NCBI RefSeq assembly: GCF_058153355.1
Contig: NZ_CM177019.1
DNA length: 64,000 nucleotides
Direction: 5' to 3' (one strand)
Shown in pieces: positions 21,824-22,158 of this stretch. Position 1 is the stretch's first letter; every line of letters starts with the position of its first letter. A program made the position numbers and the translations under genes. The notes below the pieces were generated by a model, which was not told the origin of the DNA, searched no databases, and saw only the letters and a program-made list of their open reading frames with translations.

Positions 21824-22072
21824 TTAGTGAACAAACCACTCGTCAGCAGACTCCCAGGTATCTTTCAGAGTTTCCTGAACAAAAGTTTTAGCTGAATCTT
21901 TATCGGCGGTGCGCGTAACAGAAAGGCCATCGTTGCTGGTGGCTTTTACGATCACCTCTACATCGTCATAACGTTTACTGATGCGTCGGGTTAATTCTTC
22001 CTTTAACGCATCCACAGCACCGGTTGGCATTTTAGTCATTTTCTCTTTGGCTATGCAGATTTCAATACGCAT
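21824..22072 (-). CDS. DinI-family SOS protein
   Basis: 82-aa product MRIEI.IAK...[10 protein letters not shown] colinear with DinI; LexA boxes immediately upstream. Confidence 0.8.
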
Positions 22073-22087
22073 AAAAATCCCTCTACA

Positions 22088-22103
22088 CTGTGTTTTTATA
22101 CAG
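22088..22103 (-). promoter_or_regulatory. LexA box (promoter-proximal) of dinI-like gene
   Basis: CTGT-N8-ACAG palindrome (plus strand CTGTGTTTTTATACAG). Confidence 0.6.
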
Positions 22104-22115
22104 TATTATTTTTAA

Positions 22116-22137
22116 CTGTATGGATAAACAGTGTCAA
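22116..22137 (-). promoter_or_regulatory. LexA box overlapping the promoter spacer, plus perfect -35 TTGACA at 22132..22137
   Basis: CTGT-N8-ACAG palindrome (CTGTATGGATAAACAG) with adjacent TTGACA on the coding strand. Confidence 0.55.
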
Positions 22138-22158
22138 GAGTGAGGGAAAGTGATTTTT

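Follow-up and report, generated by a model that had tools for sequence, protein, structure and literature searches.

A dinI-like gene at the attachment-site (att) end of a lambdoid prophage remnant in yecE is best read as a self-contained moron cassette whose sigma-70 promoter would be repressed by LexA at two operators, and we place the probability of this reading at about 85%. The locus lies in the window, i.e., the whole 64,000-nucleotide stretch of contig NZ_CM177019.1 (NCBI RefSeq assembly GCF_058153355.1) that was analyzed. The reading is built on observed sequence elements, LexA matrix scores, conservation, protein family, RecA-contact residues, and the prophage and cassette context. 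SOS control of the gene is predicted with support from the matrix scores, from the retention of both LexA boxes in 57 of 57 related loci and, by analogy, from experiments on Gifsy prophages. Prophage dinI genes under SOS and LexA control have already been annotated in VT1-Sakai and experimentally established in Gifsy, and the element is very common; the only refinement over what is known is the second (distal) operator.

Promoter and predicted LexA operators of the dinI-like gene

Read on the minus strand, the promoter stretch is ctcTTGACACTGTTTATCCATACAGTTAAAAATAATACTGTATAAAAACACAGTGTAGAGGGATTTTTATG, and its elements are located as follows, with the LexA boxes scored by the published heterology index (HI).

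22132-22137, minus strand: consensus −35 hexamer TTGACA, by direct reading; adjoins LexA box 1
22116-22131, minus strand: 16-mer core of LexA box 1 (distal), CTGTTTATCCATACAG, within the −35/−10 spacer
22114-22133, minus strand: LexA box 1 as a 20-mer, CACTGTTTATCCATACAGTT, HI 7.20
22108-22114, minus strand: −10 region TAAAAAT, from the promoter scan and allele invariance
22088-22103, minus strand: 16-mer core of LexA box 2 (proximal), CTGTATAAAAACACAG, over the predicted transcription start
22086-22105, minus strand: LexA box 2 as a 20-mer, TACTGTATAAAAACACAGTG, HI 6.21, top site of the window
22079-22083, minus strand: ribosome-binding site GAGGG, 6 nt 5′ of the ATG, by direct reading; most alleles keep GAGGG
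22072, minus strand: start codon ATG of the dinI-like coding sequence (CDS), by direct reading

The initial annotation had described a perfect −35, one CTGT-N8-ACAG box in a 17-bp spacer and another at the start region, and GAGGG before the ATG. All four were recovered: TTGACA at 22137-22132, a box at 22131-22116 that begins at the base right after TTGACA and occupies 16 of the 17 spacer bases, a second box at 22103-22088 relative to the predicted start, and GAGGG at 22083-22079 ahead of the ATG at 22072. The −10 can be read in two registers, as TAAAAA if the spacer is 17 bp long or as AAAAAT if it is 18 bp, and a promoter consensus scan gave 10 of 12 matches. LexA operator sequence therefore overlaps the core promoter, with box 1 in the spacer and box 2 starting 4 nt past the predicted −10. 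The transcription start is predicted from the position of the −10, so box 2 is to be understood as covering a putative start. Since the −10 is weak in either register (TAAAAA or AAAAAT), the strength of the dinI-like promoter is uncertain. For the strict pattern CTGT-N8-ACAG, the 64-kb window has five occurrences where 0.64 would be expected, a count reached in none of 100 shuffles.

Candidate LexA sites were scored by HI with additive weights solved from 363 distinct sequence/HI pairs of E. coli K-12 in PSOSP Table S1 (PMC12527982). Sites below HI 13.2, the PSOSP Mean Shift HIc1 value, were counted as binding (PMC12527982). The recovered matrix fitted the pairs exactly (rms 1.6e-5) and was palindromic. 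The best sites of the window were the following.

22086-22105, minus strand: box 2, HI 6.21
45629-45648: yebG box, HI 7.04, chromosomal internal positive control
22114-22133, minus strand: box 1, HI 7.20
29088-29107: ruvAB box, HI 9.19, chromosomal internal positive control
6837-6856: next-best site, inside the tape-measure open reading frame (ORF), HI 12.29, probably a chance match

The initial annotation had left the two boxes to be scored with a LexA matrix, and both score strongly (HI 6.21 and 7.20 against the threshold of 13.2). Among the 29 CTG-N10-CAG sites of the window, box 2 ranked first and box 1 third; the two are about equal to the yebG box and better than the ruvAB box. The boxes in the PSOSP table that we take to be those of recA, sulA, uvrB, lexA, and uvrA have HI values of 4.3-8.3, and box 1 is as good as yebG- or uvrA-class sites. 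In 300 block shuffles of the window, no site was found at HI ≤ 7.21, and no two sites of HI < 13.2 fell within 60 bp of each other. These ranks and shuffle results confirm the two-box arrangement, far beyond chance.

Conservation was followed in two sets of relatives. A single-protein query returned only proteins of 99-100% identity, a set informative for promoter variants and not for deep divergence, and a divergent panel was gathered by tblastn against a phage collection. Among IMG/VR loci whose upstream DNA was long enough, 57 of 57 retained both boxes; these loci represented 20 distinct 75-bp promoter variants. The centre-to-centre spacing of the boxes was 28 bp in 54 of the 57, and TTGACA adjoined box 1 in 51. 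Across these loci, the HI of box 1 ranged from 4.9 to 11.4 with a median of 7.2, and the median for box 2 was 5.2. The −10 region was invariant among the window, mEp460, VT1-Sakai, BP-4795, PhiR12_2, and Stx2c alleles, and the promoters annotated in AP000400.1 and JQ182728.1 span the same positions as the −10 region of the window. PhiR12_2 and the window share 92.6% identity in the promoter, 77.9% in the CDS, and 71% in the protein, with unrelated flanks, whereas VT1-Sakai shows the opposite pattern, with 75.7% in the promoter and 95.6% in the CDS. It follows that promoter alleles have been reassorted against coding alleles, yet the two-box design has persisted.

These data also bear on whether the proximal box 2 alone matters, the distal box 1 being weak or vestigial. 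In the divergent panel, the homologues of Klebsiella phages, Gifsy-2, SEN34, and Aeromonas phage pAEv1818 carry a single box, which overlaps a TATACT −10, and a proximal box is likewise present in homologues from Klebsiella, Salmonella, and Aeromonas phages; the dinI-type promoter of Yersinia YeP3 in the same panel has no LexA box. The annotators of VT1-Sakai marked the proximal box only. In that phage, both boxes are weaker than in the window (HI 11.4 for box 1 and 9.5 for box 2 compared with 7.2 and 6.2), and box 1 is lost in BP-4795, where CAA replaces CAG; the distal box may therefore be dispensable. Against this stand the HI of box 1 in the window, its retention in every one of the 57 loci with nearly fixed spacing and contact with TTGACA, and its location in the spacer, from which a bound repressor would necessarily block the polymerase. 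Control through box 2 alone is thus considered unlikely, and repression at both operators is preferred. The distal operator seems to be specific to the E. coli lambdoid lineage and to have gone unannotated.

The DinI-like protein and its mobile cassette

Three features describe the gene and its surroundings.

21824-22072, minus strand: dinI-like CDS, 82 aa, WP_001217553.1 “DinI-like family protein,” from Pfam DinI
21722-22140, minus strand: whole mobile dinI cassette (promoter, gene, and 3′ tail), moron-like, from homology boundaries and GC content
21721-21756, minus strand: conserved 3′ stem-loop, GCCGCAGCACGTT...ACGTG(T)CTGCGGT, from minimum free energy (MFE) folds and compensatory changes

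The product had been called a DinI homologue, and the identification holds. It matched Pfam PF06183 with 70.9 bits (cutoff, 24.2; E value, 1.1e-19) over profile positions 1-63 of 63, and a phmmer search against the PDB aligned it at full length with E. coli DinI (1GHH/7YWA; E value, 3.7e-13; query 1-81 on chain 1-79). DinI holds the RecA filament through a hydrophobic pocket (L13, L21, W71, W77, and F78) and an acidic patch (E24, E69, and D76) (Gao et al., PMC9926225). The corresponding residues of the prophage protein are M, L, W, W, and F for the pocket and E, D, and E for the patch, so that five of the eight contact residues are identical and three are conservative replacements. The score against the NCBIfam DinI equivalog NF007893 was 73 bits, below the cutoff of 111, and the RefSeq name “DinI-like family protein” accords with this result.

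On sequence grounds, the prophage protein is a paralogue, not an orthologue, of chromosomal DinI. It resembles E. coli DinI in fold family, in full-length alignment, in the C-terminal WESAD(D/E)WFV helix, and in the LexA regulation predicted for its gene, but differs in a two-residue insertion after K9, in other length differences, and in its location on a mobile cassette. The protein is 100% identical to that of phage mEp460 and 95% identical to that of VT1-Sakai. By homology, it is predicted to bind RecA-ssDNA filaments and modulate RecA co-protease activity. In Stx2c_JNE110649 (L093) and related Stx1a/Stx2c phages, the DinI-like protein is 86 aa long owing to a four-residue tandem duplication (VDAL-VDAL), which sits in the first helix near the RecA-contacting L21 and E24 positions.

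The boundaries of the cassette were determined by a BLAST search of the region against 83 fetched viral loci. Homology between phages starts at 22140, 3 bp 5′ of the −35, and in most of about 80 loci stops at approximately 21717-21754, about 75-105 bp past the stop codon, with unrelated flanks on either side. The G + C content of the cassette is 43.2%, compared with 54.1% for the adjacent tail genes and 49.3% for the chromosome. The dinI cassette has the anatomy of a phage moron.

The 3′ stem consists of 13 bp, and its pairing is kept across 13 sequence variants by double changes at three positions: C-G is replaced by U-A at two of them, and A-U by G-C in four variants. Stem pairs were tabulated from the fold of each variant, since a one-base bulge caused MAFFT to misplace the 3′ arm. 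The hairpin fold was not significantly more stable than shuffled sequences (z = −1.09); the hairpin is supported by covariation. The stem of mEp460-type variants runs on into TTTTCTTT, which makes it a textbook terminator; such a terminator is absent from the window and from the commonest variant, and seven of the eight bases after the stem are T in mEp460 compared with two of eight in the window. A terminator scan found no canonical intrinsic terminator on the minus strand after dinI. Since the T-run is kept in some phages and replaced in others, including the window, recombination breakpoints lie exactly at the stem. Variation of the stem and T-run was also seen at homologous positions in five of the viral loci (L002, L004, L015, L024, and L093).

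The conserved tail of about 100 nt with its covarying stem-loop recalls the dinI-DinR locus of Klebsiella, where the 3′ end of a LexA-controlled dinI mRNA functions in its own right (Ruhland et al., 2024; PMC10907235), and on this precedent the tail could likewise act as an RNA. DinR is encoded on the chromosome, is confined to Klebsiella, has a Rho-independent terminator at its end, and is bound by Hfq, whereas the tail in the window has no U-tract and no significant Rfam match. The missing U-tail speaks against an Hfq-type sRNA from the 3′ tail, and a DinR-like sRNA was rejected as unsupported, since neither the window nor the commonest variant has a U-tail. An Rfam scan of 21200-22450 at E ≤ 1 returned only sub-threshold matches, to CssrB and to one miRNA family. 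The CssrB match (21682-21754, plus strand, opposite to the 3′ hairpin) scored 23.8 bits against a gathering threshold of 76 (E value, 0.022), and this match to a chromosome-encoded Shigella sRNA family is most likely not significant.

Prophage setting and downstream cargo

The description of the gene as prophage-borne agrees with its location at the end of a lambdoid remnant in yecE. On the right, the cassette is flanked by a 36-codon yecE remnant (22320-22430), followed by yecD (isochorismatase family) and aspS. On the left are ipaH (19472-21223, on the dinI strand), which encodes a NEL E3 ligase with a type III secretion system (T3SS) leucine-rich repeat (LRR) region, then DUF4376, two tail-fibre genes, Lom, J, and the tape-measure gene. 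These flanking genes indicate that the dinI-like gene is the last gene of the remnant, and its transcription runs inward from the attachment site. Of 5426 complete E. coli genomes, 2113 (~39%) carry cassette DNA, at as many as eight places in a single genome; 133-152 phage records also contain it.

Between the yecE junction and the dinI −35, the motif TGGGGCA(T) on the plus strand (ATGCCCC on the dinI strand) occurs in four to five clustered copies at 22159-22217. VT1-Sakai has two to three copies, and BP-4795 has a 10-bp tandem array of five. Lying directly 5′ of the LexA-controlled promoter, these copies probably represent arm-type sites at which integrase binds the attP arm. The TGGGGCAT motif was not enriched across the window (4 compared with 2.9 expected), and its local clustering is its sole interest. 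In the gap between dinI and ipaH, two overlapping candidate ORFs were observed, a hydrophobic one of 58 aa at 21543-21719 (plus strand) and one of 84 aa with a TTG start at 21488-21742 (minus strand). Neither had a Pfam match, and part of this stretch (to 21587) is common to about 10 other viral loci.

The slot behind dinI is a cargo hotspot. Genes on the dinI strand were observed there in L014, L036, L039, L052, and other loci, about 750 bp on, and also in L009, L020, L024, and L078. They include a reverse transcriptase (Pfam RVT_1) that is possibly retron-like, DUF4145, Acyl_transf_3, an SDH-protease-like gene, and an IpaH/SspH-type LRR effector.

This arrangement raises the question of whether the LexA-controlled promoter reads through into same-strand cargo, so that the cassette would be an SOS-controlled “driver” and DNA damage would co-induce an accessory or virulence gene, here the type III effector gene ipaH independently of MxiE. 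The ipaH gene lies 600 bp downstream of the dinI-like gene on the same strand with no canonical minus-strand terminator between them, the hairpin of the cassette is without the T-run kept in mEp460, and same-strand cargo (LRR effector, reverse transcriptase, DUF4145, or acyltransferase) follows dinI in 27 of 80 related loci. An “avirulence protein” gene starts 155 bp downstream of dinI in BP-4795, likewise with no terminator. The missing U-tract, the same-strand ipaH, and the 27 cargo loci together leave some room for SOS read-through. On the other side, the cassette still has a 13-bp GC-rich hairpin at which transcription may pause or end, and Rho-dependent termination is likely in the 600-nt untranslated gap. 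In addition, ipaH is preceded by an element of its own:

21419-21435, minus strand: MxiE-box-like element GTATCGTTTTTTTACAT, ~195 bp upstream of the ipaH start codon

The consensus of the MxiE box is GTATCGTTTTTTTANAG. The element differs from this consensus at one position, and zero chance matches were expected; it would therefore seem that ipaH has retained a promoter element of its own that is linked to the T3SS. Induction of cargo from the dinI promoter is considered quite unlikely.

The state of the remnant was also considered, since a degraded prophage might carry the cassette as an inert relic, no longer expressed or useful. E. coli CFSAN029787 has an identical locus with the same annotation, and in its prophage many tail genes are frameshifted, as is ipaHd. 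In the window, however, the dinI-like ORF is intact and encodes a protein identical to that of a functional phage, mEp460; the promoter, both boxes, and the ribosome-binding site are intact as well. Since the host supplies LexA and RecA, the cassette depends on no further function of the phage, and we regard an inert relic as very improbable.

A Gifsy-type induction module, in which dinI is the first gene of an operon with a small antirepressor payload directed at the prophage repressor, was rejected as very improbable for the window: in Gifsy-1/2/3, the dinI homologue does precede the antirepressor gene gfoA/gftA and irsA in a LexA-controlled operon (PMC3121763), and a small ORF directly follows dinI in SEN34 and pAEv1818, but here the dinI-like gene lies at the att end and not in the replication/nin region, the cassette ends about 100 bp past the stop codon in most phages with convergent tail-fibre genes next, and tblastn of the whole window with an irsA-like protein and the proteins encoded downstream of dinI in Gifsy-2, SEN34, and pAEv1818, at a cutoff as loose as E ≤ 10, gave chance matches only (E ≥ 0.14), i.e., no antirepressor or irsA homologue.

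Comparison with known systems and proposed working

The closest counterparts of the locus, and of the preferred two-operator cassette, are H0001 of VT1-Sakai (AP000400.1) and the dinI-like gene of mEp460 (JQ182728.1). Both carry the same cassette, with TTGACA, the −10, and the proximal SOS box in matching places, at the att/int end of the phage beside tail-fibre genes. AP000400.1 annotates a “putative promoter of H0001 and H0002” and a “putative SOS box,” which corresponds to box 2, and JQ182728.1 annotates the dinI-like promoter; the distal box in the spacer is unmarked in both records. The integration site differs, being yehV for VT1-Sakai and yecE in the window, where an ipaH effector gene follows.

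Experimental data come from Salmonella. The Gifsy DinI homologue accumulates after mitomycin C (Lemire et al., 2011; PMC3121763), Gifsy prophages are no longer induced in a lexA3 background or once the LexA-box region is replaced (PMC3121763), and nalidixic acid raises expression of the three Gifsy dinI genes 4.6-23-fold (PMC8072944). Gifsy-1/2/3 share with the window a prophage DinI homologue (43% identity) and a LexA box near the start codon. They differ in having a single box over a TATACT −10 and a position after the replication genes, followed by an antirepressor that drives induction; in the window, the gene has two boxes, lies at the end of the prophage, and is accompanied by neither an antirepressor nor an irsA homologue. 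The chromosomal dinI of Salmonella has one operator of HI 4.0 and a very weak one of 17.6 (PMC8072944), whereas the two operators of the window are of similar strength. Multiple boxes in a core promoter are also found in lexA, with two boxes 21 bp apart, and in recN, with three, in the Salmonella table (PMC8072944). The boxes of the window differ from those of lexA in being 28 bp apart (~2.7 turns), with box 1 adjoining a consensus −35.

In the literature searched, the coverage of which was incomplete so that absence is unproven, no description of a double operator of E. coli/Shigella prophage dinI was found. Three sources were set aside: PMC9733699, on LexA-VP16 and the yeast two-hybrid system; bioRxiv 2022.08.08.503262, on chromosomal dinI; and PMC2669165, in which near-identical lambdoid genes could not be probed.

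From the elements described above, we infer as follows where LexA binds, where transcription starts, how strongly the promoter is repressed, and how the protein acts on RecA and prophage induction. In an undamaged cell, a LexA dimer at box 1 in the spacer would block the binding of RNA polymerase, and a second dimer at box 2 would cover the predicted start and block initiation. The 28-bp spacing corresponds to a non-integral number of helical turns (~2.7), so cooperative binding of LexA is not expected, and the “tight” control proposed initially would follow only from multiplicative, independent occupancy of the two sites. Upon DNA damage, RecA filaments would trigger self-cleavage of LexA, both operators would become empty, and the freed promoter with its consensus −35 would fire. 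The DinI-like protein would then bind RecA filaments. In Gifsy, non-polar deletions of dinI did not significantly affect induction (PMC3121763), a result that, by analogy, would count against a clear benefit of the protein.

As a discovery, the element is ordinary, as its kind is already known and it is present in ~39% of complete E. coli genomes. The distal operator is worth including in predictions of the LexA regulon and of the SOS dependence of prophages, and the cassette flags a cargo hotspot at the prophage end. The locus would add an extra DinI-like protein to the SOS response of Shigella, EIEC, and STEC strains. Such a protein could shift RecA co-protease activity and thereby prophage and Shiga-toxin induction or quinolone tolerance; in E. 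coli, it has been speculated that an extra prophage DinI limits Stx-phage induction or aids survival of quinolones (PMC8456039, PMC10575684).
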